This document shows, in pieces, positions 10,742-57,082 of a stretch of 64,000 nt of DNA (the first letter of the stretch is position 1; each line of letters starts with the position of its first letter). This stretch comes from Escherichia phage Andreotti. Under the pieces are notes generated by a model. That model did not search any database, was not told the DNA's origin, and saw nothing but the letters and a program-made list of their open reading frames with translations. The DNA lies in the sequence record MN850610.1; one strand, given 5' to 3'. The position numbers and the translations under genes are program-made.

Positions 10742-11164
10742 TTATTTCTCTCTCAGTTGGTTAAGTTTCTTTCTAGAACATTTTAAGTTTTCGGATGAAG
10801 AAAAGTCAAGTGTCTTTTCAGAACGTGGATAATAGTGCCTATCCCAAGAAGTTTCAACATCGTTAATCAGTGACGCTAGATTACACAGGTCTGTACCACT
10901 TTGCAACCTCTTTTTAAGAGAATCTAGTAAAGCAACTGTGTCTTTAGCTTTACGTCTCGCTGTAGCAACATCTTTCATATGCTCAAACACAGAGCATTTT
11001 AAGTCATCTTCATAGTTTTCAGATAACTCTATTTCATGTTGTATATCAACCATTCTCCTGTGATGGTGAGCATATTCCCGTTGAGCAGCAATGTCAAGTT
11101 CTTCCAACTTCTGCAAAGCTCTAACAAAGTCAGCTATGTCTGGGTGAACAAACATTTTCTGCAT
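10742..11164 (-). CDS. hypothetical protein (140 aa); first gene of a minus-strand operon
   Basis: ORF track; divergent from the DNA polymerase operon. Confidence 0.5.
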   Translation of the reverse strand: MQKMFVHPDIADFVRALQKLEELDIAAQREYAHHHRRMVDIQHEIELSENYEDDLKCSVFEHMKDVATARRKAKDTVALLDSLKKRLQSGTDLCNLASLINDVETSWDRHYYPRSEKTLDFSSSENLKCSRKKLNQLREK

Positions 11165-11340
11165 GTAAGCCTCTTTTAAGTAACTATTAAGTTTTAATCT
11201 TTTATCTTAACGTATTCTATACGTTATACTTTAAAGCTTTTTAAAAGCTATTAAATAATCTTTTAAGAGTTTTAAAGTATCTGTATAGTTAAACTGTTAA
11301 GTAACCTTTTAAGTAAAAACCCACTTCGCAAAGATTAACA

Positions 11341-11362
11341 CCTTGTCAAGTGCATTGTCAAC
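11341..11362. promoter_or_regulatory. conserved control element CCTTGTCAAGTGCATTGTCAAC in divergent intergenic region
   Basis: near-identical 22-mer recurs at 53989-54010 in the other divergent region; contains palindromic CTTGTCAAG core and second TTGTCAA; TATAAT at 11371-11376. Confidence 0.4.
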
Positions 11363-11421
11363 TTGCTTTTTATAATTTTTTGCAGTAATGTATGAGGTTA
11401 ATGATTTTAGAGGGAGTAAAA

Positions 11422-14121
11422 ATGGAAAACGTAGATTTTAAAAACTTACATTTAGTTGGTGATACAGAAACTGATGGTTTACTCCTTGAGTTCACTAAAG
11501 TGCACGTAATGGCTTTCGCAGACTATAAATCTGACGATGAAGAGCCGCCTGTATGGGTCTTTACAGATGAGCCTATCCTCGGTCACAAGTATACCAAGTA
11601 TATTAAGGGTGGCTTACGTGAAGGTATTGAGTTTGCGTTAAAGGCAAAACGTCTTTGCATCCATAACGGTCTCGGTTATGACTGGTGGGTTTTCAATCAC
11701 ATTGCACCTGATTTATGGAACTTTGATAATCCAAAGTGTAAACCGTGGAGTAATTTCTTTCAGGATTCTCTTATCCAGTCTCGTGTTCAGTGGATGGATA
11801 GACCAACTCCAAAGGGTTATAAAGGTGCTCATGGTTTGGCTGCATGGGGTGCTCGTGTCGGTGTTCGTAAACCAGAGATTGAACATTGGGGTGTGTGGAA
11901 TGCAGAAATCTTCACTCGTGTTGTAGAAGATATCCGTATTAACGCCAAAACTAAACGGGCACTTGATAACGAGTATCTCAAGCTTAAGAAGTGTGGTATA
12001 GACACTTATGAAACTTACATGCGAGCTAAAGAAACATCTTTCTGGATGAGTCAACAGGCTATCAATGGTTGGAAAGCTGATAAAGAGCTTATGGAGTTCC
12101 ATGTAAAGGAACTTGACAAGTTGACTAATGAACTTGCTTCAGAAGTTGAACCGCATCTACCTCCAACTATTAAGACCAAAGGTAAAGTCACTGGAGAAGA
12201 GTTTGCAAAAGCTTGGAATGAGTATGTTGAAGCATTTGGTCATGCAGATGGACTGAAAAGAATTACCAAGTACCCTAAGACGAAGTATCGTCAGCAGGTG
12301 CGTAATGGTGAGATGCAGACTTATGAAATCAAACCATTTGGTAAGCCAACTACAAAGATTTTTAACATTGAAAAAAGGAATTGCTATACACCAACCAACT
12401 CTGTAACTGGTGAAGAGTACAAGGAAGGTTTTGTAGCAATGAAGGATGCTCGTGCAATTTGCAATGAGTTGAATGCAAAGATTGGTAAGAAATGCAAAGA
12501 CTGGAAGCCAGTAAAAACAGTCAAAACTGTGAAGTACTATAACAGCCACGTTGTTAACCACTTTGAACTTGAGTCAAGTCGCTACACAGGTTTGATTGAT
12601 GCACCATATACACCAATTGAGTTTGAAGTTTCTCGTATGACTCAGGTAGCAGTTGTTAAAGACTACTTGAAATCGGTTGGTTGGATTCCAGATGACTGGA
12701 ACTACAAGAAAGACTCAGACGGTCGCCCTGTCAAAGTTTGTCGTTTCAAAGACAATAAAAAGATGATTACAAAACATCCTAAGTGGCAGGAAATGGTTGA
12801 GCGGTGTGGTTTGAGCTATGTTGAGCACGAAGGTGTACAGTACATTGAGCATAATTGGTCTGTGAAGAAATACACAGATTTGCTTGAACCTTGCTTAATC
12901 CGTACTTCACCAAAACTTACTGAATCATCTTATGATACGATTGAAGGTGAGCTTGGGCAGAAGATTGCTAAATACTACACTTTGATGCACCGACGCAGAA
13001 CTATTGAGAACTCAAAGGATGACGAGAAAGGTTGGCTGAACCAGATTCGTCCAGATGGTCGCCTTAGTGCTGGTGCAATGGTATTTGGTACTTCAACTGG
13101 ACGTATGACCCAGTATGGTATTGTAAACGTACCGTCTGGTGCTGCTGTCTATGGAGAACCAATGAGGGCAGTGTGGATTTGTGAAGAGGGAACCAACGTA
13201 GTCTCTGTTGATATGAACTCAGCCCAGCTAGTTCTACTTTGTAACTTTATGGGTGATAAAGAGTTCACCAAAGCGGTAACGCAAGGTAAAGAAGAGATTG
13301 AGTTTATTCGTCAAGAAGATGGACGCTATTACTGCAAACATTTTGATGAGTACCTAAACCCAGAGATTGATAAGTACCTTCGCTATGACTCTGAGAATGA
13401 CCTGTACGTTGTCTATTCAGGGACTGATGCACATACACTGAACAGTATTTACTTTAGCTTGAATGATGAGCAGGATATCTTGACTTGTCGAGCTACTCAG
13501 GATGAGAATCTTCTTCATGAGATTAGCAAAGGTCGTAAGAAAGCTAAGAATGGTATCTATGCACTACTGTTTGGTGCAGGTGATGAAAAGTTTGCTAAAA
13601 CTATTAAGGCAGCCACTACTCAGGAAGGTGCATTAACTAAACAGACTTACTTTGTGCGTTTGCCAAAGATTAAGAAACTATTAGATGACTTGGAAGATGA
13701 CTACAAAGCAACTAAAAAGGCACTTGAAGAGGTGTTTGGTAAGACTGCTGCAATCTCTAAAGGGGGCTTTGTAAAGGTTGCTGGAGCTTGGTTGTGGTGT
13801 AAATCTCCACATAAGTTATTGAATTATTTGCTCATGGGTTCGGAGGCTCAGATTCAGAATGAGGCAATTAACCTTGCTTGTAGAAGAGCATGTGAAGAAG
13901 GGTTGACAAAATTAAATGGACGAAAACCAGCAATTGGTGCTAGGCTTTTGCTGGCATACCACGATGAAAACAGTTGGGAGTGCCCAGAAAGTATGACTCA
14001 AGAAGTTAAAGCCATAACTGACTGGATGTATGGTCAGGCATCTAAGAATTTAGGTTTGAAGAGTGAGACGCTTGTAACTGGCACAGGAAAGGTTGGTAAG
14101 AGCTGGTATGAGGTACATTGA
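11422..14121 (+). CDS. DNA polymerase, family A (T7-like), with 3'-5' exonuclease domain
   Basis: Exo I motif DTETDGL; pol motif A-like VDMNSAQL, motif B KKAKNGIYALLFGAG, motif C HDE; start placed at ATG 11422 with GAGGGAG RBS rather than track start 11392. Confidence 0.9.
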   Translation: MENVDFKNLHLVGDTETDGLLLEFTKVHVMAFADYKSDDEEPPVWVFTDEPILGHKYTKYIKGGLREGIEFALKAKRLCIHNGLGYDWWVFNHIAPDLWNFDNPKCKPWSNFFQDSLIQSRVQWMDRPTPKGYKGAHGLAAWGARVGVRKPEIEHWGVWNAEIFTRVVEDIRINAKTKRALDNEYLKLKKCGIDTYETYMRAKETSFWMSQQAINGWKADKELMEFHVKELDKLTNELASEVEPHLPPTIKTKGKVTGEEFAKAWNEYVEAFGHADGLKRITKYPKTKYRQQVRNGEMQTYEIKPFGKPTTKIFNIEKRNCYTPTNSVTGEEYKEGFVAMKDARAICNELNAKIGKKCKDWKPVKTVKTVKYYNSHVVNHFELESSRYTGLIDAPYTPIEFEVSRMTQVAVVKDYLKSVGWIPDDWNYKKDSDGRPVKVCRFKDNKKMITKHPKWQEMVERCGLSYVEHEGVQYIEHNWSVKKYTDLLEPCLIRTSPKLTESSYDTIEGELGQKIAKYYTLMHRRRTIENSKDDEKGWLNQIRPDGRLSAGAMVFGTSTGRMTQYGIVNVPSGAAVYGEPMRAVWICEEGTNVVSVDMNSAQLVLLCNFMGDKEFTKAVTQGKEEIEFIRQEDGRYYCKHFDEYLNPEIDKYLRYDSENDLYVVYSGTDAHTLNSIYFSLNDEQDILTCRATQDENLLHEISKGRKKAKNGIYALLFGAGDEKFAKTIKAATTQEGALTKQTYFVRLPKIKKLLDDLEDDYKATKKALEEVFGKTAAISKGGFVKVAGAWLWCKSPHKLLNYLLMGSEAQIQNEAINLACRRACEEGLTKLNGRKPAIGARLLLAYHDENSWECPESMTQEVKAITDWMYGQASKNLGLKSETLVTGTGKVGKSWYEVH

Positions 14122-14633
14122 TGAGAGATTGTGGATTCACACATGAACAGTTAAAGTCTTGGTTAGATTATGACCCCGAAACAGGGGTCTTAACATGGAT
14201 TGGCAGACCCCCACATAGTAGTAGGGTGGTTATTGGAAGCCAAGCCGGAGCAATTAAGCGCACAAGGTCTGGTGTGTATATGCACACACAGATTTTAGGA
14301 TACAGGACAGGTAATCACCGAATTGCTTGGTTCTGGATGACAGGTAAGTGGCCTGATAAACACATTGACCACAAAGATGGAGATGGTTTGAATAACGCTT
14401 GGGACAATCTAAGAGAGGCCACAAAAGAACAGAATATGTCTAATAGGAGACAACCTAGAACATCAAAAAACTTAAAAGGTACAAGTAGAAGCAAGTCTGG
14501 TAAGTGGATAGCCCAGATTAACCATAATGGCAAGACTATACATATAGGAACATACACAACAGAAGAAGAAGCCCATAAAGCTTACTGTGAAGCTGCTGTG
14601 AAACTCCACGGAGAGTTTGCAAAACTATCTTGA
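14118..14633 (+). CDS. HNH endonuclease with AP2-like domain (putative homing endonuclease)
   Basis: YDPETGVLTW motif; HNH region HRIAWFWMTGKWPDKHIDHKDGDGLNNAWDNLRE; start overlaps polymerase stop (ATGA); paralog of 4029-4565. Confidence 0.75.
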   Translation: MMRDCGFTHEQLKSWLDYDPETGVLTWIGRPPHSSRVVIGSQAGAIKRTRSGVYMHTQILGYRTGNHRIAWFWMTGKWPDKHIDHKDGDGLNNAWDNLREATKEQNMSNRRQPRTSKNLKGTSRSKSGKWIAQINHNGKTIHIGTYTTEEEAHKAYCEAAVKLHGEFAKLS

Positions 14634-14684
14634 CAAGGTGCTCATGGAAGAGTACCTTATACAATATCTTATATAGGAGGGCTT

Positions 14685-14894
14685 ATGAGCCACCGTGGAA
14701 GAACCCATGCAGCGATGATGAAAGGTGCTTCAAAGGAAACTATCAAGAACCGTAAGCAGAAGTTGTTTGAGAGAATGAATAGACTCATTGATAACACTTC
14801 CCTGTCTGGTGGTGAGAAAGTTTTCCTTAAAAGTAACCTTAAAAGTATTGCACAAGAACTTGTAGATATTGAATATTGGAGACATCAAAAATGA
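14685..14894 (+). CDS. hypothetical protein (69 aa)
   Basis: ORF track; AGGAGG upstream of ATG. Confidence 0.45.
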   Translation: MSHRGRTHAAMMKGASKETIKNRKQKLFERMNRLIDNTSLSGGEKVFLKSNLKSIAQELVDIEYWRHQK

Positions 14895-15109
14895 CACTTG
14901 CAGACGTTATTCAGCAACTTCATGATAACTGCTACACTCCAGAGTTAATTCAGGAGATGTCCATTGTAGTCATGCCTAGCAAGTTCGTAAAAACCTTTAA
15001 CAACGACGCTTTAAGGTCTACACACATCCTTATCGTTGATGGTAAGATTGCAAAAGACCGTACTGGAGTACTCAAAGGCGAACGTATTGATATTCTGGAG
15101 TTGCTATGA
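14876..15109 (+). CDS. hypothetical protein (77 aa)
   Basis: ORF track; overlaps previous ORF by a few codons. Confidence 0.45.
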   Translation: METSKMTLADVIQQLHDNCYTPELIQEMSIVVMPSKFVKTFNNDALRSTHILIVDGKIAKDRTGVLKGERIDILELL

Positions 15110-15241
15110 AGAAAATGTACAGTCTATGGGGAAGGGTTGGTAAGGGTTTTGACTGGACACTTCTTCGTTCAAACGTTAAACGTAGTGAATTACCAGAACT
15201 CATCACTCACTATTTAAAAACATACAGAGAGGTAGACTATC

Positions 15242-15499
15242 GTGAACAATAAGGTTAAGAGTTGTGTGAAAGCAATGGTTGCACTTGGAGTAATTTTTCT
15301 GGCTGGCTGCAACCCATCTTATGAAAACAAAGATGCTTCTTACAGCCTCCCTCCAGAGATGCAAGACTGCAAAATCTACAAACTCAATGGTGATGCTATA
15401 AGCAGAGATATTGTTGTTGTCAGATGCCCAAACTCTCAAACAACAACATCTTATAGCTATGGCAAAAATGGTCAATCACATACTACGGTTATTGAGTGA
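15242..15499 (+). CDS. small lipoprotein (85-aa precursor), GTG start
   Basis: signal peptide MNNKVKSCVKAMVALGVIFLAGC with lipobox LAGC; two further Cys in mature part; GAGAGG RBS. Confidence 0.5.
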   Translation: MNNKVKSCVKAMVALGVIFLAGCNPSYENKDASYSLPPEMQDCKIYKLNGDAISRDIVVVRCPNSQTTTSYSYGKNGQSHTTVIE

Positions 15500-15509
15500 G
15501 GTTTTCACG

Positions 15510-15716
15510 ATGGAAGTATTAGTAAACTATATCTATCGTTATGATGTTGTTCACTCCACTACAACCATAGCTCAACGTAACCCAATAGTCCCACGAGAAG
15601 GTGAATTGGTTCGCATTGATGGTTGGACTTACACTGTTGAGAGCATCATTCATAAGTTTGATGTTGCTGGTGATGTTCAAGTTATCGACGTAGAGATTGG
15701 TGGTAAGAGAAAATGA
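15510..15716 (+). CDS. hypothetical protein (68 aa); internal start of track ORF 15411-15716
   Basis: ATG at 15510 (MEVLVNYIYRYD...) avoids overlap with lipoprotein ORF. Confidence 0.4.
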   Translation: MEVLVNYIYRYDVVHSTTTIAQRNPIVPREGELVRIDGWTYTVESIIHKFDVAGDVQVIDVEIGGKRK

Positions 15717-15931
15717 CTGTAGAAGATAAATTTAAGAACGCAGTTCTTACAGAAGATGGTGAGCTTGAAACATTCATTCTTCGTGTTGATGGTAAGCTAT
15801 TCCGGTGTCGTTGTGGGTCAAACTGTTTCCATAAACCAGATAAAAATGACTTAGAGCTTTACGCATGTAATGCTTGCAATACTTGGTATCACTCAGAGGT
15901 TAAAAATGACAATCCTATACAAACAAAATAA
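15713..15931 (+). CDS. hypothetical zinc-ribbon-like protein (72 aa)
   Basis: CRCGSNC...CNACN cysteine pairs. Confidence 0.45.
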   Translation: MTVEDKFKNAVLTEDGELETFILRVDGKLFRCRCGSNCFHKPDKNDLELYACNACNTWYHSEVKNDNPIQTK

Positions 15932-17009
15932 AGATGGTTCCTTCAACGTCTGGTCATGCGTTGCTGTAGGTGACAAAGTTATCACAACCTACGGTAAAGA
16001 AAATGGCAAGATGATGTTTGAAGAGTACACAGCAGAGCCTAAGAACATCGGTAAAAAGAATGAGCGTAACGCTGAACAGCAAGCTCTCTTTGAAGTTGCT
16101 GCTAAGTATAAAAAGCAAGTTGACCGTAAAGGCTACGCTTACACAAAAGAGTCTGCAAAGAATACTGAGAAAGTAGGTGTACAACTTGCTCATGATGCTG
16201 CAAAGGTTAGTCATGCAAAGTATCTGAAGTTCCCTGCTGATGCTCAACCAAAACTTGATGGTGTACGTTGTAGAATTTCAAGACACTTAAGTATTGGCAG
16301 TGTATTTACAGCATATTCTCGTGAGAATACTGTTTACAAAATCCCTACTGAACTAATACCTGACATTATGGCAATGTTAAGGCTCCACAAAGATGTTGAT
16401 GAATTTGATGGAGAGATTTATGCTCATGGGTGGGACTTAGAAGATATTGTCTCCATGATTAAAAATGAAGACAATCCTGACAGACACTTACTTAAGTTCT
16501 ACTGGTATGATATCTGTGACAGTACTAAAACGTGGCCTGAGCGTAGAGATATTATTGAGACTTCACCATTGAATGACTTTAGAGACGGCTGTAAAGTTGT
16601 CCCTGTTAAATCTCGTCGTGTAAATTCTTGGGAAGAGTTTGATGAAGCTCATGATAAGTGGGTTGAAGCTAAGTTTGAAGGTGCAATGTACCGTTCAATC
16701 TCTGAAGAATCTTTCTACGAGTGTGGTCACCGTTCATACTTCTTGATTAAACACAAGAAGATGCACACTGAAGAGTTTAAAGTGACTGGTGTAAAGACCG
16801 ATAAGCGTGGTCATGGCAAGTTCGTTGTAGAGACTCTTCCTAATGTCTTTGTAGATGTTTCATGGAAAACTACCCATGAGAAGAAGAAGTATCTTGCTGA
16901 ACATCCTGAAGAGTTTATCGGGAAACCTTTAACGGTTCAGTTCCAGAAGATGACTCGTAAGGGGTCTTTACAGTTCCCTGTAGGGCTAGTTATTAGGGAT
17001 TATGAATAA
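15906..17009 (+). CDS. ATP-dependent DNA ligase
   Basis: ligase motif I KLDGVR; size about 367 aa; start set to ATG 15906 (MTILYKQNKDG). Confidence 0.8.
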   Translation: MTILYKQNKDGSFNVWSCVAVGDKVITTYGKENGKMMFEEYTAEPKNIGKKNERNAEQQALFEVAAKYKKQVDRKGYAYTKESAKNTEKVGVQLAHDAAKVSHAKYLKFPADAQPKLDGVRCRISRHLSIGSVFTAYSRENTVYKIPTELIPDIMAMLRLHKDVDEFDGEIYAHGWDLEDIVSMIKNEDNPDRHLLKFYWYDICDSTKTWPERRDIIETSPLNDFRDGCKVVPVKSRRVNSWEEFDEAHDKWVEAKFEGAMYRSISEESFYECGHRSYFLIKHKKMHTEEFKVTGVKTDKRGHGKFVVETLPNVFVDVSWKTTHEKKKYLAEHPEEFIGKPLTVQFQKMTRKGSLQFPVGLVIRDYE

Positions 17010-17012
17010 ACT

Positions 17013-17171
17013 ATGTTCAGTACAGTCATTCTGTTTATACTGGTTGTCTTTGTATTGTCATACGTTGCAAGTAAGCTTTTGGACACATCTTTTGCAATGG
17101 GTGTCTTGTTTACAATCTTTTGTTTCGTGACACATATAGCTATCAGAACTTTTTTTATAAAAAGTTGTTGA
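17013..17171 (+). CDS. possible small hydrophobic protein (52 aa)
   Basis: manual ORF MFSTVILFILVVFVLSYVASKLL...; weak RBS; overlaps predicted promoter, so doubtful. Confidence 0.2.
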   Translation: MFSTVILFILVVFVLSYVASKLLDTSFAMGVLFTIFCFVTHIAIRTFFIKSC

Positions 17172-17195
17172 CATAGAAAATTTGGTGAGTATACT
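17168..17195 (+). promoter_or_regulatory. sigma70-like promoter TTGACA-N16-TATACT
   Basis: consensus -35 TTGACA at 17168-17173, 16-nt spacer, -10 TATACT at 17190-17195; upstream of repeat region and gene 17577. Confidence 0.5.
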
Positions 17196-17225
17196 GAGCA
17201 GCATAAACCAACGGGTACTCACCAA

Positions 17226-17500
17226 CATCACTTAAGAGTCTTTGAAAAGGGTTTTTTAAGTGATGTGGGGCGAGGCTCGGTGAGGTGGGGTAAGGCATAG
17301 TGCGGTGCTGTTTGGTATGGGTAGTTAGTCTCAGCTACATTAAAATGAGACTTACCTTTTTAAAAGGTCTTTAAACAGGGTCTTTTAATAAGGTTGTGTG
17401 ATGTGATGTATGGTGCTGTGGAGTTTGGTTAGGTCCGGTCAGGTATGGTATGGTGATGTGAGGTATGGGTGGATGGTAGTAGCCACGTTAAAAATCTACC
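17226..17500 (+). repeat. GT-rich composite repeat region 1: hairpin c (17226-17265), GT-rich block, hairpin e (17327-17352), conserved 37-mer f (17357-17393), GT-rich block, hairpin h (17475-17500)
   Basis: elements recur in same order at 18637-19029; blocks built from GGTNN pentamers. Confidence 0.75.
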
Positions 17501-17558
17501 AAGTTTCTAAAGAGTCTTCTGTTGAGGGTTCTTTACAAACAACTTAACAATCAACTAA

Positions 17559-18164
<606 letters not shown>

Positions 18165-18166
18165 TT

Positions 18167-18607
18167 ATGAATACAAAAGCATTAGCAGCAAAGTTTAGTT
18201 ACGGTGACACTGTATCACACTCTGAGATGGATACCTTCTTAGGTATTGTGAAGCCAACTTATCAAGGTGACATTGTTAAGTACGAAGATGAAATGAAGGC
18301 TTATGCGCTTACACGTCTAAACCGACTTGAGAAGTTTATTGAGAAGCTTCTTAAAGAAGAGAAGATTTATCTGGTTGCTTCAATGGGTGTTGGTTATCGT
18401 GTGGTTGAGCCTAAGCATCAAGCAACTATTGCAAAACGCAAAATGTCTGGTAAGATTGGTCGTGCTTTAAAGCAAGCCACTCAAGCGATTGAGAATGTGA
18501 ACACTATGGCACTTAGCCATCAAGAACGTTCACGACTAATTGAACAGCAAAACCACTTAGCTGCTATGAAAGCTAACATTAACAAGCAACGTAGAAAACC
18601 TTTCTAA
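18167..18607 (+). CDS. hypothetical protein (146 aa)
   Basis: ORF track; followed by terminator. Confidence 0.6.
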   Translation: MNTKALAAKFSYGDTVSHSEMDTFLGIVKPTYQGDIVKYEDEMKAYALTRLNRLEKFIEKLLKEEKIYLVASMGVGYRVVEPKHQATIAKRKMSGKIGRALKQATQAIENVNTMALSHQERSRLIEQQNHLAAMKANINKQRRKPF

Positions 18608-18616
18608 GTTGACTAG

Positions 18617-18641
18617 GTAGCCTCTTCGGAGGCTCCTTTTT
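18617..18641 (+). terminator. rho-independent terminator
   Basis: AGCCTC-TTCG-GAGGCT hairpin followed by CCTTTTT. Confidence 0.6.
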
Positions 18642-19029
18642 AAAAGGTCTTTAAACAGGGTCTTTTAATAAGGTATTGTTCGGTGTTGTATGGTAGGGTC
18701 TGGTCCGGCAGGGTCTGGTTCGGTCCGGTAGGGTCTGGTATGGGTAGTTAATCGGAGCTACATAAAAATTCGATTACATCACTTAAGAGTCTTTTAAGAG
18801 GGTTTTTAAGTGAGGTGTGGCACGGTAATGCTAGGTAGGGTCAGGTCAGGTCAGGTGAGGTAAGGTGTGGGTAGTTAGTCTCAGCTACATTAAAATGAGA
18901 CTTACCTTTTTAAAAGGTCTTTAAGAGGGTCTTTTAATAAGGTATTGTATGGTGTAGTTTGGTTAGGTATGGTTGGGTGTGGTAAGGTAGGGTATGGAAG
19001 GATGGCAGTAGCCTTATAAAAAATCTGCC
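18637..19029 (+). repeat. GT-rich composite repeat region 2: f (18637-18673), GT block, hairpin e' (18751-18774), hairpin c' (18777-18815), GT block, hairpin e (18877-18902), f (18906-18943), GT block, hairpin h' (19004-19029)
   Basis: direct repeats of region 1 elements; e/e' and h/h' differ by stem-preserving substitutions. Confidence 0.75.
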
Positions 19030-23288: not shown

Positions 23289-25631
23289 TTAAGCAGTTCT
23301 CACCCAAGCCATTAACTTGTAGAACTGGTTAGTAACACTAAATGCTGAACCAGAACCTGTACCACCAGTGTTACCACTTACTGTATGACTGTGAGCACCA
23401 ATACCAACACTGTGAGCATGGTTACCAGCAGAAGCGGCAGTACCACTTACGGAGTGGGTGTGAGCACCGTTAGCATCGGTGTAACCCGGTCCTACACCAA
23501 TACTACCACCACCACCACCAGAGTAGTGTGTAGAGTTCTGACCAATCCACGAAATGGAATGGTTGTGGTTACCAGCAGATGAAGTAGAGCCACTTACAGA
23601 GTGAGTGTGAGCACCAGTCGTGTTAGTGTTTTTTGTTCCGTAGTCAAACGATGAGGTAGTCGCAGAAAAACTGTGCGTGTGCGAAGGTAAGTTACCAACA
23701 GCTAACGTTACAGAATCTGAACCACCAGTTGTAGCAACATCTGAACCATTTGCTGCTGCAATTCTAATAGTCCTACCAACACCATTCTTCAGATACGTCC
23801 AAGTTAGGCCAGGCAGTGCTGTATTAGGGTTAACATTACTGTTAAACCACGTCACAATACCTACTGGATAGATTTTATTCAGGTCTGTAGAGTCACTAAT
23901 TGCTTCTGCAATCTTCTGGTCAGTTTCAGCTTTAGTGTATGCACCAATCTCTGAAGGGGTAGGTTTCTGAGCTTCAGTGTAAACCTTAGACCATTCAACC
24001 TCAAAGCCAAGTGTGTCTCTGGCTGACCTGTACCACATCCCACCATTTTTCGATTCAAATCTTAATTGTGCAGATGGTGTTAGGGCTTTCGCATTAGAGG
24101 CCATGTGCAAGACTAAACGGTTTTGCCCACTAGATTTTGTCTCAAGATAGATTCCTGATGGTTGGTCCCAAGCCACACCACCAGCAGCCTCGGTCTTCGA
24201 AGCTCTGAATGCTGACCAGAAATACTTTGAATCGGCTTTGTCTTTACCGTAATACCTTGCATCAAAGTTTGTGAAGTTGCTAGGTTGTACTTGACCACCA
24301 ATTACTAAGTTTGCATTAATTGATACTTCGGAACCAATGCTTAGTCTTTTACCAGTTTTATAGTTATACAACCTAACAGTGTCACTGCCGTCGTCATCAT
24401 TGCCAACATACCACCTATTCGTTCCATCATAATCCTTACCCATAATGTAAAGTTCGGAGGTTGATTTTCCTTGTAACACGAGAGCTTCACCATTAGTGTT
24501 AATAACCTGCTTTGCAGTGAACGTGTTACTTCCATTAGTTCTTGCAATTGTACTTAATGTTGCTGCTGGAATGTATCTAGAGTCAATGTTAGCCCAATCT
24601 GAAGGCTGAACTTGACCAGTGATTTTCACAGTCTTAGTAGTGGTAATCACATTTGACAAAGAGATAGTTGTACTCGTGGTGTAGTTATGTAGGTTGACTA
24701 CAGAATCAGAGTTATCAGTCCCTAAGTAGAACTTGTTTGTCCCATCAGCCTTCTGCCCCAGCAAGTATAGTCCAGTTGCAGCAGTGGCATTCTTAATGAC
24801 TAGTACAGCGTTATCTCTGGTGATATTGAACTCTCCTACAAAATTGTTAATACCCCTGAAGGTGTTATTGCCAACTAGCTGTGCAAATCTCTGATTAGCT
24901 GCTGTCTGTGTGAAGTATCTTGCATCCAAGTTAGAGAAGTCAGAAGGTTGCACTTGACCATTGATTGATAAAGACCTATTAAAAGAAGCAGCCGTGCCTA
25001 GAGTGAGGATGGAACCTAGTTTACTCTCGATTTGAACATCAAGACTACCCCTAATCAGGTTCCCAATAGCCCAAGTTTTTTCATTACTTGCATCCCTACC
25101 TACAATAGCAGAGTATGCTCTATCCCCACTCACAGGAGACCTTAGTGTTAACTGTTCCCCATTTGCTACAATTGTCTGTCTAGAGTTAAATGTGTTTGTA
25201 ACAGCCAACCTTGCATATCTTGCGTCATTCTCTTCATTAGTTCTCATCCCAAGTTCATTAGGGCTTGGCTTATTCAGAGTATGATAAACAGTTGCAGACC
25301 TTGAAGCATCTGCAATAGTTAGTTTAAGACCGTTTGCATTGATTTTAAAAGCCTTTAAAACATCCCCCATAGTAATCTCAGAAGAGTCTGTAGGGTCAAA
25401 TACTGCCTTACCACCATAAAGTAACTTGACAATTCCTAAGTCACCCGTCATAGTGCTACCAGCAATCTGAACAAATCTTTCTAGTTTAAAAGACGCTAAG
25501 AAGTCTTGATAGGTCATTCGACGGTCTTCATCACCTAACATTTCAGGTCTCTTTTTAACCCTGACATGGAGAAGGTCGTCTGAACGGATTGTGTCGATTG
25601 AGTTTAATTCACTCAACTTGTAATCTGCCAT
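23289..25631 (-). CDS. tail fibre protein (780 aa) with His-rich HxH repeats near C-terminus
   Basis: Ser/Thr/Gly/Asn-rich repeats; C-terminal AHTHSV, NHNHSI, AHSHTV, NHAHSV motifs; C-terminus paralogous to 25678-26826. Confidence 0.7.
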   Translation of the reverse strand: MADYKLSELNSIDTIRSDDLLHVRVKKRPEMLGDEDRRMTYQDFLASFKLERFVQIAGSTMTGDLGIVKLLYGGKAVFDPTDSSEITMGDVLKAFKINANGLKLTIADASRSATVYHTLNKPSPNELGMRTNEENDARYARLAVTNTFNSRQTIVANGEQLTLRSPVSGDRAYSAIVGRDASNEKTWAIGNLIRGSLDVQIESKLGSILTLGTAASFNRSLSINGQVQPSDFSNLDARYFTQTAANQRFAQLVGNNTFRGINNFVGEFNITRDNAVLVIKNATAATGLYLLGQKADGTNKFYLGTDNSDSVVNLHNYTTSTTISLSNVITTTKTVKITGQVQPSDWANIDSRYIPAATLSTIARTNGSNTFTAKQVINTNGEALVLQGKSTSELYIMGKDYDGTNRWYVGNDDDGSDTVRLYNYKTGKRLSIGSEVSINANLVIGGQVQPSNFTNFDARYYGKDKADSKYFWSAFRASKTEAAGGVAWDQPSGIYLETKSSGQNRLVLHMASNAKALTPSAQLRFESKNGGMWYRSARDTLGFEVEWSKVYTEAQKPTPSEIGAYTKAETDQKIAEAISDSTDLNKIYPVGIVTWFNSNVNPNTALPGLTWTYLKNGVGRTIRIAAANGSDVATTGGSDSVTLAVGNLPSHTHSFSATTSSFDYGTKNTNTTGAHTHSVSGSTSSAGNHNHSISWIGQNSTHYSGGGGGSIGVGPGYTDANGAHTHSVSGTAASAGNHAHSVGIGAHSHTVSGNTGGTGSGSAFSVTNQFYKLMAWVRTA

Positions 25632-25677
25632 TATAAATTTTCCTCTTAAAAGGGGCTATACAGCCCCTGTAAAGAAA

Positions 25678-26826
25678 TTAAGCTGTTCTCTGCCATACAT
25701 ACAATACGAAGGATGGCTGTTCAACACTAAATGCTTGACCAGAACCAGTTGGACCAGTTGTGCCAGAGTGCGAATGCTCACCTGCTCCGGTTACTGTTAC
25801 TGTTGCTGAGTGGCTGTGGGAACCAATTGCAACAGAATGGCTGTGAGCACCAATACCAACCGTATGATTATGCGCACCAATTGCTACAGAGTGAGTGTGG
25901 TTGTTAGCTGTTGTCAACGTAGCTCTTGGGTCATAGCTTGCCCCCTCAACCGATAAACCTCTCCAGCCACCATCAGCATAGCCACGGTTAATGAATGTTG
26001 TTTGTGTTAAGCCAGCGGCACTTGTTGTTCTGTTGCCATAGTCGTAAGTAGATACGGTCTTGGTTCCGTAGTCAAACGTTGTAGTCCCTTTAGTGCCATA
26101 ATCAAAAGCACTGATAGAGGACGTTGCACCATGAGTGTGACCGCCACCAGTGACATACACTGAGTGGGTATGTGCAGGGATGTTATTAACCGTCAATGCA
26201 GTAGTCTGTGAACCAAACGTTGAACCAACTGGCCTAGAAGCACTATCATAACCTACAAGTGCTCTTCCTTTTGAAACTAACTCCCAAGTGCCTCCACAAA
26301 TTAAATATGTAGAAGGGTTTGCAGGATTCATAGAGAGATGGATAGTACCTACTGGATAAGAAGCCTGAACAGCCTTGTACAAGTTATTTACTGCTCTTGC
26401 TGTAGCATACTTATCTGCATCCTCGTTATAAAGGTTAGATGTCACCCAGTTCTGAACATTACTTAACCCAACCTGTGCCTTAGTGGTATTGTGTGGGTTG
26501 CTCTTATCATCAATATGTTGTTGAATAAGATTATTAACCTCTTCTGAAGACATAATCTGTAGATTTGCTCTTGCCTCAGCTACATTAACAATGTCTGATA
26601 AGTTATTTTCAGCAACTAACTGGAGAGCATTAATAACGTTATCTAAACCAATTTGTGTCTTAGTAACACCATGAGGGTTATTTCTTAGGCTTGAGTGTGG
26701 AGCAAGTAATTGCTCAAGAGTGCATCTCTTATCCTCGATACCCTGTTTAAGATGGAAGATATCACTAAGGTCAATTGGTAAGGCTGCTTGAGGCAAGGCA
26801 CTAATTTGAATTTCACCTACTGCCAT
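25678..26826 (-). CDS. tail fibre protein (382 aa), paralogous C-terminal domain
   Basis: HTHSV / HNHTV / HSHSV repeats; C-terminal ...GSGQAFSVEQPSFVLYVWQRTA like ...GSGSAFSVTNQFYKLMAWVRTA. Confidence 0.65.
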   Translation of the reverse strand: MAVGEIQISALPQAALPIDLSDIFHLKQGIEDKRCTLEQLLAPHSSLRNNPHGVTKTQIGLDNVINALQLVAENNLSDIVNVAEARANLQIMSSEEVNNLIQQHIDDKSNPHNTTKAQVGLSNVQNWVTSNLYNEDADKYATARAVNNLYKAVQASYPVGTIHLSMNPANPSTYLICGGTWELVSKGRALVGYDSASRPVGSTFGSQTTALTVNNIPAHTHSVYVTGGGHTHGATSSISAFDYGTKGTTTFDYGTKTVSTYDYGNRTTSAAGLTQTTFINRGYADGGWRGLSVEGASYDPRATLTTANNHTHSVAIGAHNHTVGIGAHSHSVAIGSHSHSATVTVTGAGEHSHSGTTGPTGSGQAFSVEQPSFVLYVWQRTA

Positions 26827-47910: not shown

Positions 47911-48468
47911 TTACTTTCTCAGTGGATGAATAAAGAATGCCAACATAACTCTTTCCCTTGAGAATGCTCTTTCTTCTGGGACAACACTTTTTAGTTTCCA
48001 TCCAACATAAATTCTCCAGTAAAACTGTTTACCAAAGATTTTAATTGACGGAATAAAAGCGAATAATCCCCAAGCATTGTTGTTCCACATTAGGAGATAA
48101 CCTGTCTGATTATCTTCAGGGTCAGAACTTACGTTGATATTACCTTTCCACTTAGTAACATCTTTTACATCTCTTCCTAATACATGGTAAGAGAAGTTAT
48201 AAGCTTTGTTTCTCCAGAGCCATCCAACTCTCTGCATATAAACACCGAGCTTGCCAATCTTTCTAATCTTAGCCCATCTCTCAACGTGGCCTTTATCACC
48301 ATCAATCGGGTTGTCATAGGTCTCCATCCATCTGAATCCAAAAGGTAGATGCCCTTTCTTCTCACTGTAGAATGGAACTACGAAAGGTGCTAAGATGACT
48401 GCTAGGGTTGCTGCAAATGGTTCTAGTAAAGCTAGGAAAATCCATGAAGCATACTTCAAATATCTCAT
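47911..48468 (-). CDS. hypothetical membrane protein (185 aa) within tRNA array
   Basis: N-terminal hydrophobic segment WIFLALLEPFAATLAVILAPFVVPF; AAGAGG RBS. Confidence 0.55.
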   Translation of the reverse strand: MRYLKYASWIFLALLEPFAATLAVILAPFVVPFYSEKKGHLPFGFRWMETYDNPIDGDKGHVERWAKIRKIGKLGVYMQRVGWLWRNKAYNFSYHVLGRDVKDVTKWKGNINVSSDPEDNQTGYLLMWNNNAWGLFAFIPSIKIFGKQFYWRIYVGWKLKSVVPEERAFSRERVMLAFFIHPLRK

Positions 48469-55488: not shown

Positions 55489-56618
55489 TTAAAGCAAAGA
55501 CTTACCCAGACTTCAAAGAGTTTGTGAAGGGTTTCATTGCAAATGTAAAGGCTGGTAAGAGATATGATTTTAGAACATATCAAGAGGCTATTTTACCACT
55601 TACCTATAGTTCATATTGGCCTGAAGCTGATATTGCAGAAGCTGAGAAGTTTGACTACAAACCAGACTACAAAGTTCCATTTAGTGATGAATTGCTTTAC
55701 AGTGTTGGTGCACAGATGAGAACTGCTGATTTCTTCATGGATTTGCAGTATGCAATCATCAATGGTAAAGATGTTGACACAATTTACTGTGAATGGTTGG
55801 CAAGAGTTAAACCGTTCTCAATGTTGAATGCTAAGTTGAAGGATGCTATTAAGCCACCAGCAATTACTCAGCAACCAACAGGTCAAACAGTCAATGAGGG
55901 TGGCACACTTACTCTAAGCATTCTAGCAACTAACGCCACTGGATATCAGTGGAAGAAGGATGGTGAGGATATCCCTAGTGCCAATTCTGCAACTTACACA
56001 AAACAGTCAGTAGCACCTTCTGACGCTGGTTCATACACTTGTGTTGTATCTGGAGAGGGTGGAACAAGTGTTACCTCAGATGCAGCAACAGTGACTGTGA
56101 ACGCACTACCTGTGATTACCAAGCAACCTTCTAACCAGACTATTAATGAAGGTGGAAACATCAACTTAGCAGTTACTGCAACTGGTGCAACTGGTTACCA
56201 ATGGAAGAAAGATGGCTCTGACATTCCTTCAGCGACAAATGCTACCTATAGCAAGTCTGGTGCTCTGCCAGCAGATGCAGGTTCATACACTTGCGTTGTA
56301 ACAGGTGCAGGTGGTTCTGTCACTTCTAGCCCTGCAACGGTTATTGTTAACGCACTTCCGGTAATCACTCAACAGCCAACCAATCAAGAAATCACTGAAG
56401 GTGAGACTTTAATACTGAATGTTGTGGCAACAGGTGCAACAGGTTACCAGTGGAAGAAAGGTGAGGAAGACATCCTCGATGCAACTGCTGCAACTTACAC
56501 CAAAGAAGGTGCAACCACTGCTGATGCAGGAAGCTACACTTGTGTAGTTACTGGTGCAGGTGGCTCTGTAACATCTAATGCAGTAACAGTTACAGTTAAC
56601 CCAGCAGGGGAGGCATAA
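55485..56618 (+). CDS. protein with three tandem Ig-like repeats (377 aa)
   Basis: three about 80-aa repeats with conserved ATGYQWKKDG...ATYTK...ADAGSYTCVV pattern (Ig-like, Hoc-like); N-terminal domain paralogous to 55117-55488. Confidence 0.65.
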   Translation: MIKAKTYPDFKEFVKGFIANVKAGKRYDFRTYQEAILPLTYSSYWPEADIAEAEKFDYKPDYKVPFSDELLYSVGAQMRTADFFMDLQYAIINGKDVDTIYCEWLARVKPFSMLNAKLKDAIKPPAITQQPTGQTVNEGGTLTLSILATNATGYQWKKDGEDIPSANSATYTKQSVAPSDAGSYTCVVSGEGGTSVTSDAATVTVNALPVITKQPSNQTINEGGNINLAVTATGATGYQWKKDGSDIPSATNATYSKSGALPADAGSYTCVVTGAGGSVTSSPATVIVNALPVITQQPTNQEITEGETLILNVVATGATGYQWKKGEEDILDATAATYTKEGATTADAGSYTCVVTGAGGSVTSNAVTVTVNPAGEA

Positions 56619-57082
56619 TGCAACTCTCAAGAAAAGGTTTAGAAGCTATTAAGTTCTTTGAAGGTCTTAAGCTTGAGGCTTACGAAGATTCTGCTGGAAT
56701 CCCCACAATTGGGTATGGGACAATTCGTATTGGTGGGAAGCCTGTTAAGATGGGTATGAAGATTACCGCTGAACAAGCTGAACAGTATCTTCTCGCAGAT
56801 GTTGAAAAGTTCGTTGCAGCAGTGAACAAAGCTATCAAGATTCCAACTTCTCAGAACGAGTTTGATGCACTTGTAAGTGAAACATACAACATTGGTATCA
56901 CAGCTATGCAGGACTCTACATTTATCAAGCGCCACAACGCTGGTAATAAGGTAGGTTGTGCAGAAGCTATGCAGTGGTGGAACAAGGTTACAGTCAAAGG
57001 TCAGAAGGTCACTTCAAACGGCCTGAAAAACAGACGTAGAATGGAAGCTGACATTTATCTTGACAGTGTATACCCAAAGTAA
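56618..57082 (+). CDS. endolysin, lysozyme-like (GH24-type)
   Basis: N-terminal LEAIKFFEGLKLEAYEDSAGIPTIGYG resembles the catalytic Glu/Asp region of phage lysozymes; 154 aa; followed by terminator. Confidence 0.75.
   Translation: MQLSRKGLEAIKFFEGLKLEAYEDSAGIPTIGYGTIRIGGKPVKMGMKITAEQAEQYLLADVEKFVAAVNKAIKIPTSQNEFDALVSETYNIGITAMQDSTFIKRHNAGNKVGCAEAMQWWNKVTVKGQKVTSNGLKNRRRMEADIYLDSVYPK

Follow-up and report, generated by a model that had tools for sequence, protein, structure and literature searches.

Described phage proteins with which the one considered here can be compared include the receptor-blocking lipoproteins Llp and Cor and the T4 exclusion proteins Sp and Imm. Llp of phage T5 binds, from the periplasm, the plug of FhuA, a TonB-dependent transporter, and llp adjoins the receptor-binding gene oad (pb5). 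The Llp fold has four strands in two sheets, and its C11-C58 disulfide, which ties the N- and C-termini together, is needed for FhuA binding; models of Cor share this terminus-tying disulfide architecture. Phage Rtp has a comparable factor, whose gene adjoins the receptor-binding protein gene and whose product binds LptD. T4 Sp and Imm block the entry of superinfecting genomes without touching the receptor (Llp preprint). We analyzed a stretch of 64,000 nucleotides from Escherichia phage Andreotti (MN850610.1), hereafter the window, with the focus on the open reading frame (ORF) at 15242-15499; coordinates are on the plus strand unless stated otherwise. The original prediction, made from the sequence alone, had taken the product of this ORF for a small lipoprotein and a candidate factor of superinfection exclusion or receptor blocking, with Llp as the example. 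The overall best explanation, which we advance tentatively, is that it is a DUF4884 lipoprotein acting as a periplasmic envelope effector, with receptor-independent protection as the likeliest benefit.

By its sequence, the window is Felixounavirus DNA, approximately 95% identical in nucleotides to that of Salmonella phage Felix O1; for the 1.4 kb surrounding the ORF, nucleotide identity to Felix O1 and many other Felixounaviruses is 93-96%. The coding sequence (15242..15499; 85 codons plus stop) was delimited from the ORF list, orthology, the PHROG 902 match and the ratio of non-synonymous to synonymous substitution rates (dN/dS), and its translation is MNNKVKSCVKAMVALGVIFLAGC-NPSYENKDASYSLPPEMQDCKIYKLNGDAISRDIVVVRCPNSQTTTSYSYGKNGQSHTTVIE, with NPSY directly after MNNKVKSCVKAMVALGVIFLAGC. 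The orthologues, Felix O1 ORF91 (Felix01p170, NP_944949.1) and CPT_Mushroom42, are both annotated as "hypothetical protein" with the identical 85-codon reading, and the gene is present throughout the Ounavirinae. Comparison with Felix O1 revealed 9 synonymous and 0 non-synonymous differences over 60 mature-domain codons. The dN/dS was 0.04-0.08 against Sl26, ULIM3 and wV8, and its full range was 0-0.08. Given these ratios and the retention of the lipobox in 252 of 256 relatives, it is virtually certain that ORF 15242-15499 is a real, selected gene.

The product matched PHROG 902 ("unknown function") over residues 2-83 (E=2.9e-18). All 121 relatives retrieved, one of them 96% identical, carry a precomputed PF16225 (DUF4884) label without a "weak" mark, and the window protein displays the family signature, namely the lipobox Cys, about 20 residues, a Cys, about 18 residues and CPN-x-T-x-T-x-Y-xx-GK. 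A hidden Markov model (HMM) of the mature domain, made from 30 diverse members, scored the ORF at E=1.3e-29, a value that is partly circular because the window protein is itself one row of the alignment. The NCBIfam scan of the protein gave no match. Taken together, the sequence comparisons assign the protein almost certainly to the DUF4884 (PF16225)/PHROG 902 family.

The N-terminus was assessed with the PROSITE rule PS51257, which asks for a Lys or Arg within the first 7 residues, an uncharged hydrophobic stretch, the lipobox [LIVMFWSTAG]2-[LIVMFYSTAGCQ]-[AGS]-C, and the Cys at positions 15-35. The rule matched from the GTG at 15242, which puts the Cys at position 23, and from the GTG at 15266, which puts it at position 15. 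The predicted signal peptide (residues 1-22; 15242..15307) comprises a Lys-rich n-region, the core AMVALGVIFL and the lipobox L20-A21-G22. It is followed by Cys23 (15308..15310), the predicted site of lipid attachment and first mature residue, which is invariant in alignments A1 and A2 and conserved in at least 90% of A3. The residue after Cys23, at +2, is Asn, which is not an enterobacterial inner-membrane retention residue. The lipoprotein signal was kept in 252 of the 256 family members. Of the four exceptions, two were N-terminally short and a third had the lipobox Cys replaced by Tyr; the fourth had a Cys within the six-residue stretch that the regular expression scans, a feature that ought to be compatible with the rule. 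Across the family the hydrophobic part of the signal varies freely but the lipobox is retained, and this is the pattern expected of a true lipoprotein. Distant members gave weak matches to the Pfam lipid-attachment model LPAM_1. The pattern alone occurs at chance level in these 64 kb: 2 ORFs of the window carry a PS51257-type signal, against a mean of 1.65 in 20 shuffles. The second one (56409-56630, minus strand) is Cys-rich, lies antisense to the region where the endolysin begins (56618), and looks like a chance ORF, an antisense artefact; that such an ORF carries the signal means that the pattern by itself is no evidence. With the family comparison, the product of ORF 15242-15499 is predicted with high confidence to be a lipoprotein.

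These results agree with the original prediction in its description of an 85-amino-acid precursor with the lipobox LAGC and two mature cysteines, and in its call of a lipoprotein signal. Its statement that a GTG start is served by a good ribosome-binding site (RBS) holds as well. A Shine-Dalgarno-like GAGAGG (15227..15232) precedes GTG 15242 with a 9-nucleotide spacer, as seen in the sequence and in the codon-level comparison of orthologues, and the Mushroom annotators put the RBS at the equivalent position. This GTG has the best RBS of the candidate starts and was picked by the annotators of both Felix O1 and Mushroom. The identity of the start is not certain, however. The in-frame GTG at Val9 (15266..15268) has a weaker RBS and would give a 77-amino-acid precursor with a 14-residue signal peptide, similar to the 15-residue signals of orthologues that begin MWK... 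or MLK.... From ATG 15275, the start in one RAST annotation, the PS51257 rule failed. In wV8, Sl26, Michonne, Sf13 and a contig of a Citrobacter phage, an ATG start lies 15 codons ahead of the lipobox Cys, after AGGAGA or GAGAGG. Codon-by-codon comparison placed a TGT and a degraded RBS at this position in the Felix O1 lineage, including the window, where other Ounavirinae have the ATG start. The real start would be GTG 15242 or, less likely, GTG 15266, and both leave a valid lipoprotein signal.

The mature domain (63 amino acids; 15308..15496) was modelled by AlphaFold2 as a small all-beta fold of five strands, with a mean predicted local distance difference test (pLDDT) score of 79.7 from 118 sequences. 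This run replaced an initial one with 30 sequences and the signal peptide included, which reached a pLDDT of 63 and was set aside. Independent BFVD models of family members superposed at template modelling (TM) scores of 0.6-0.8. Beyond Cys23 the mature part has exactly two cysteines, Cys43 (15368..15370) at the start of strand 2 and Cys62 (15425..15427) just after strand 3, both invariant in A1, A2 and A3. In most members the first cysteine of the pair follows the lipid Cys by 20 ± 1 residues, and the two are 17-19 residues apart. A Cys43-Cys62 disulfide that staples the strand 2-3 hairpin is predicted. The most conserved stretch is V59-K75 (VVRCPNSQTTTSYSYGK; 15416..15466), with the signature VVRCPNSxT[ST]TxYxxGK in alignments A1-A3 and A5. 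In A2, C23, C43, C62, P63 and K75 are invariant, and N64, T67, T69, Y71 and G74 are conserved in at least 90%. The surface formed by V59-K75 is a candidate interaction surface, as inferred from this conservation. A PDB sequence search returned signal-peptide matches only, and three fold searches had neither Llp nor Cor among their matches and gave no informative structural match.

Variation around this domain was also recorded. A2 contains subfamilies (e.g., P0036, P0042 and P0071; P0020, P0052, P0061 and P0092). Two extra cysteines are present in 26 of the 252 members; those in A2 carry them round the GK turn as CGKxC, which suggests a second disulfide. The sequences of many family members are prolonged at the C-terminus by VVIDGETYV[KR][QE], which is missing from the Felixounavirus proteins. 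Two Felixounavirus-type metagenomic variants deviate further. In P0006, the upstream ORF92 start (MKKMYSLWG) is fused to the lipoprotein and a Tyr replaces the second conserved cysteine, and P0012 is frameshifted after residue 43; both are rare and may be decaying copies or sequencing errors.

The distribution of the family was determined at several depths. An exhaustive profile search of 1.84 billion representatives gave 1168 representatives at a cutoff of E<=1e-3 and 629 at one of E<=1e-10, and the family thus has at least 629 clusters at 50% identity; nearly all of the 150 best listed were 75-110 amino acids long. By tblastn, the family gene was found in 591 phage records. The carriers included Felixounavirus, Mooglevirus, Vibrio phages of about 114 kb, the T4-like Acinetobacter phage Acj61, Obolenskvirus, jumbo phages of E. 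coli, Yersinia, Erwinia and Serratia, and E. coli phages of about 140 kb. The range also takes in Aeromonas phages, putatively T5-like phages and reportedly T1-like phages. The usual setting of the gene is among replication or nucleotide-metabolism genes: directly after the DnaB-type helicase gene in Obolenskvirus, between the genes for the origin-binding protein and a helicase in the 114-kb Vibrio phages, and downstream of the ribonucleotide reductase genes in Acinetobacter contigs of about 100 kb. No neighbouring gene was common to the seven lineages compared, indicating a single-gene module; by these sequences, the family is a stand-alone module carried by many virulent, mutually unrelated phages whose hosts are Gram-negative. 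The DUF4884 gene of Acj61 directly precedes spackle (sp), and gene 61.1 and the primase gene 61 come next (Acj61p058, Acj61p057; L006, 2501-3091).

Among approximately 185,000 species-representative bacterial genomes, a core-motif scan with the tighter alignment found one locus, in Hylemonella; this form of the family is essentially phage-borne. At that locus (Hylemonella gracilis ATCC 19624, NZ_AEGR01000062.1; L019, 6004-6282), one of eight neighbouring ORFs matched PHROGs, with a family of unknown function. A Felixounavirus-type copy with 88% amino-acid identity was present in the record "Staphylococcus phage SA1" (147 kb; GU169904.1, 94364-94591), and the 1.4-kb nucleotide search likewise matched one "Staphylococcus" record. 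This suggests that the SA1 record is a mixed or chimeric assembly.

We propose the following course of events. The precursor would leave the cytoplasm through Sec, receive its lipid at Cys23 and undergo cleavage by signal peptidase II, after which Lol-dependent transfer would take the lipoprotein to the outer membrane. In E. coli, lipoproteins are sorted by the +2 rule, with Asp at +2 as the enterobacterial inner-membrane retention signal; the transfer is proposed because the +2 residue here is Asn. The beta domain of 63 residues would face the periplasm, where its stapling Cys43-Cys62 disulfide would have formed, and bind an envelope component that is conserved across hosts and is not the phage's own receptor. 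The envelope of the infected cell would thereby be changed during the replication phase. The likeliest benefit would be receptor-independent protection against secondary infection or envelope damage, a purpose like that of T4 Sp/Imm; the mode of action would not be that of Llp.

Two observations point to the nature of the target. The VVRCPNSxTxTxY..GK core hardly changes between phages of Enterobacterales, Vibrio, Aeromonas and Acinetobacter. A core that stays the same across hosts and receptors, under purifying and not diversifying selection, argues for a target conserved across Gammaproteobacteria rather than a lineage-specific receptor. In addition, Asp occupies +2 in 46 of the 252 members, including the copies of E. 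coli jumbo phages (C-D-A-S). Since Asp at +2 predicts inner-membrane retention, the function is probably independent of the outer-membrane anchor and the target periplasmic. We lean slightly towards the view that the protein is a periplasmic effector acting on a conserved host target. That its effect is superinfection exclusion may be regarded, by analogy, as the single likeliest role, at a probability well short of even; receptor-independent protection is favoured because of the analogy to T5 Llp and T4 Imm/Sp and because the DUF4884 gene of Acj61 has sp, the one known exclusion gene to which a link was found, as its neighbour.

Several points weigh against this explanation. First, lipidation at Cys23 is predicted from a sequence pattern. 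Second, the +2 rule varies among bacterial groups, which makes the localisation argument soft. Third, the timing of expression was deduced from position only, and the literature on Felix O1 transcription gave nothing usable. Fourth, the adjacency to spackle occurs in one genome only. Fifth, a local Pfam-A scan of the window protein, even at E<=10, did not return PF16225/DUF4884; the PF16225 model may be absent from the local copy, or its matches may have been filtered out. Finally, the searchable literature has DUF4884 as a label only (B. thetaiotaomicron BT_3183 and the Henu8 ORF), and no function is reported in it.

Of the alternatives, the one that survives best is that the lipoprotein is an envelope-directed takeover or counter-defence factor unrelated to exclusion. 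It might, for example, inhibit an envelope stress sensor, a peptidoglycan hydrolase, the outer-membrane biogenesis machine, vesiculation or an abortive infection triggered from the periplasm; we regard this account and its examples as rather improbable. The invariant core across hosts, the purifying selection, the variable membrane anchor and the stand-alone gene would all fit it, and expression alongside replication genes suits a takeover function. However, PADLOC gave no match to a known defence or anti-defence family, the structural searches were uninformative, and the literature searched yielded no phage lipoprotein of this kind, for which reason its prior was set below that of exclusion. 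Roughly, exclusion ranks first in likelihood, takeover or counter-defence second, an Llp-type role third and lysis fourth.

An Llp/Cor-type blocker would bind the periplasmic face of the phage's own outer-membrane receptor, and so prevent superinfection and the loss of progeny on debris. The general build is alike, a small lipoprotein with a beta-rich domain and one disulfide, and there is a short local resemblance to Llp, P-x-[DE]-[LI]-x-C-x-[IA]-Y-x-[LM]. Homology was examined with a T5 Llp query 100% identical to the T5 record and a 13-sequence Cor profile built from T1 Cor. With hhalign, A2 aligned to the Cor profile over columns 1-21 only, that is, the signal peptide and lipobox. Full-length Llp reached a probability of 88%, carried by the signal peptide; with mature Llp, it fell to 1% (E 0.056, 9 columns, 118-sequence profile). 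A Cor HMM matched nothing in the window, nor in the Mushroom genome, which is complete, and T1 itself has Cor but lacks DUF4884. The window protein is very probably not a homologue of Llp or Cor. Weak matches to PHROG 1119 (Cor) were obtained with two of three distant homologues (E about 1e-3), and two jumbo-phage homologues bear such names: EcMJ_513 of Escherichia phage vB_Ec-M-J (L005, 2507-2758) is labelled "Cor superinfection exclusion protein" and the member of fEgEco12 (PP777464.1, 309872-310048) "lytic conversion lipoprotein". Both the labels and the weak matches are explained by shared signal peptides, and the labels should not be propagated to family members. Related labels vary as well: the RefSeq label of T5 llp itself (NC_005859.1, 110429-110659) is "Cor superinfection exclusion protein", whereas in phage EC100 the orthologue of Llp (OK665835.1, 107530-107760) goes under the name "lysozyme".

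Location and biology also speak against a receptor blocker. The nearest tail-fibre orthologues (23289-26826, minus strand) are about 7.8 kb away on the opposite strand, with the ligase, dihydrofolate reductase and thymidylate synthase genes in between. Felix O1-type phages are reported to use lipopolysaccharide and no protein receptor, so that a receptor of the plug type that could be jammed is not apparent. Phages that differ widely in host and receptor carry the same conserved protein, and the published ORF table of the T1-like phage Henu8 reportedly has a DUF4884 gene in the early region as well as a Cor gene by the tail fibres. Given also the different disulfide topology, this alternative is very unlikely. 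The proposal of T5 Llp-like receptor blocking thus failed on mature-domain homology, on disulfide topology and on adjacency to an RBP gene. The accompanying suggestion of a place in the replication module with early expression fared better, in that the gene is located in the interval from polymerase to ligase; expression at an early or middle stage is plausible.

A role in lysis, be it as an additional component of the o-spanin type or by regulating the timing of lysis from the periplasm (antiholin, lysis inhibition), is at least as improbable. A small predicted outer-membrane lipoprotein with periplasmic cysteines recalls the Rz1-type o-spanins, Felixounaviruses carry rIIA/rIIB genes, and one distant homologue weakly matched an Rz-like spanin PHROG (E 0.05) with its signal peptide only. 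However, Mushroom, which is 95% identical here, has an overlapped i-spanin/o-spanin pair near rIIB (record positions 84161-84671), and this separate pair ruled out an o-spanin identity for the window lipoprotein. A comparative study places the spanins of this genus in a separate lysis module (PMC8300805). No i-spanin-like gene adjoins ORF 15242-15499, no spanin homologue was found in the window, and over 30 kb separate it from the orthologues of the holin gene (47914-48468, minus strand) and the endolysin gene (56618-57079). Moreover, the folded beta domain, the apparently intramolecular Cys pair and the prolines (4 of the 63 mature residues) are unlike Rz1, and the family is found in phages with unrelated lysis systems. 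Finally, a chance ORF or non-functional remnant with a coincidental lipobox, for which the chance-level frequency of PS51257-type signals in the window and the loss of the ancestral ATG start in the Felix O1 lineage might be cited, is in practice already refuted by the conservation data, namely the purely synonymous differences from Felix O1, the dN/dS of at most 0.08 and the 629 clusters with conserved cysteines and lipobox, and also by the replacement start with its good RBS, and its probability is negligible.

We return to the receptor-independent envelope effector and its genomic setting. The DNA polymerase gene (11392-14121) is followed directly by an HNH/AP2 endonuclease gene (14118-14633), then by a tightly packed stretch of six small ORFs on one strand, to which the lipoprotein gene belongs, and the string is closed by the DNA ligase gene, which ends at 17009. 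The immediate neighbours of the lipoprotein gene are small soluble ORFs. In a scan of 10800-18800, neither flank of the ORF had a promoter-like or terminator-like site on the same strand, and the guanine-plus-cytosine content of the ORF is that of its neighbours; it belongs to the polymerase-to-ligase unit and is no moron with expression of its own. It is this embedding among replication genes that makes early or middle expression plausible. Some features of the vicinity were noted in addition. Right after the ligase gene, a 52-amino-acid ORF (17013-17171) has two long hydrophobic stretches (MFSTVILFILVVFVLSYVASKLL...GVLFTIFCFVTHIAIRTFF) and could encode a small membrane protein. The best sigma-70-like match of the scanned 8-kb region (17168-17195, plus strand; 11 of 12 positions) begins at the 3' end of this ORF. 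The DNA polymerase is one continuous ORF of 909 amino acids here and has 906 amino acids in Felix O1; that of Mushroom (L003, 25365-28375) is annotated as two pieces approximately 380 bp apart.

As a single instance, the gene adds little, since its product is already on record as a hypothetical protein in Felix O1-like phages. Of wider interest is that the same small lipoprotein, with a near-invariant core, occurs in hundreds of virulent phages of differing types and hosts, several groups of which serve, or have been suggested, as agents of diagnostics, biocontrol and therapy. Should it alter the infected cell's envelope, it would affect the mutual interference of phages in a cocktail and could point to a conserved weak spot of the Gram-negative envelope. 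The whole DUF4884 family is a reasonable target for experiment. A bolder and unlikely extension is that DUF4884 lipoproteins are a pan-phage receptor-independent effector, whose disulfide-stapled beta domain, tethered in the periplasm, binds a component conserved from Enterobacterales to Vibrio and Acinetobacter and so closes the infected cell to further genome entry. This component might be, for example, the peptidoglycan layer, the outer-membrane biogenesis machine or the cell-puncturing/lysozyme device of incoming tails; the same low probability applies to these targets. If true, this would be a third class of superinfection exclusion beside the receptor jammers (Llp, Cor) and T4 Imm/Sp, and one common to myoviruses, siphoviruses and jumbo phages.

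Set against the known systems, the gene differs from that of an Rz1-type o-spanin in that it is unpaired with an i-spanin gene, lies among replication and not lysis genes, and encodes a product that is not proline-rich. The Cor proteins of T1, phi80, N15 and HK022 are likewise small lipoproteins with two mature cysteines; however, the second Cor cysteine is at the extreme C-terminus, and T1 cor comes directly after the tail genes, whereas the window gene sits between polymerase and ligase. With Llp, it shares the small lipoprotein of a virulent phage, a periplasmic beta-rich domain and one disulfide, here predicted. Llp is made shortly after infection, and the window gene is plausibly early or middle. 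However, C43 and C62 are 19 residues apart in mid-domain, which departs from the Llp fold, and both llp and cor flank receptor-binding or tail-fibre genes, which the window gene does not. T4 Sp is a soluble helical periplasmic protein and Imm an inner-membrane protein; neither is a lipoprotein. Neither family appeared in the PHROG, Pfam or NCBIfam scans, and the only link is the neighbouring sp gene of Acj61. Nevertheless, as early envelope proteins of a virulent myovirus, Sp and Imm provide the most plausible functional analogy.

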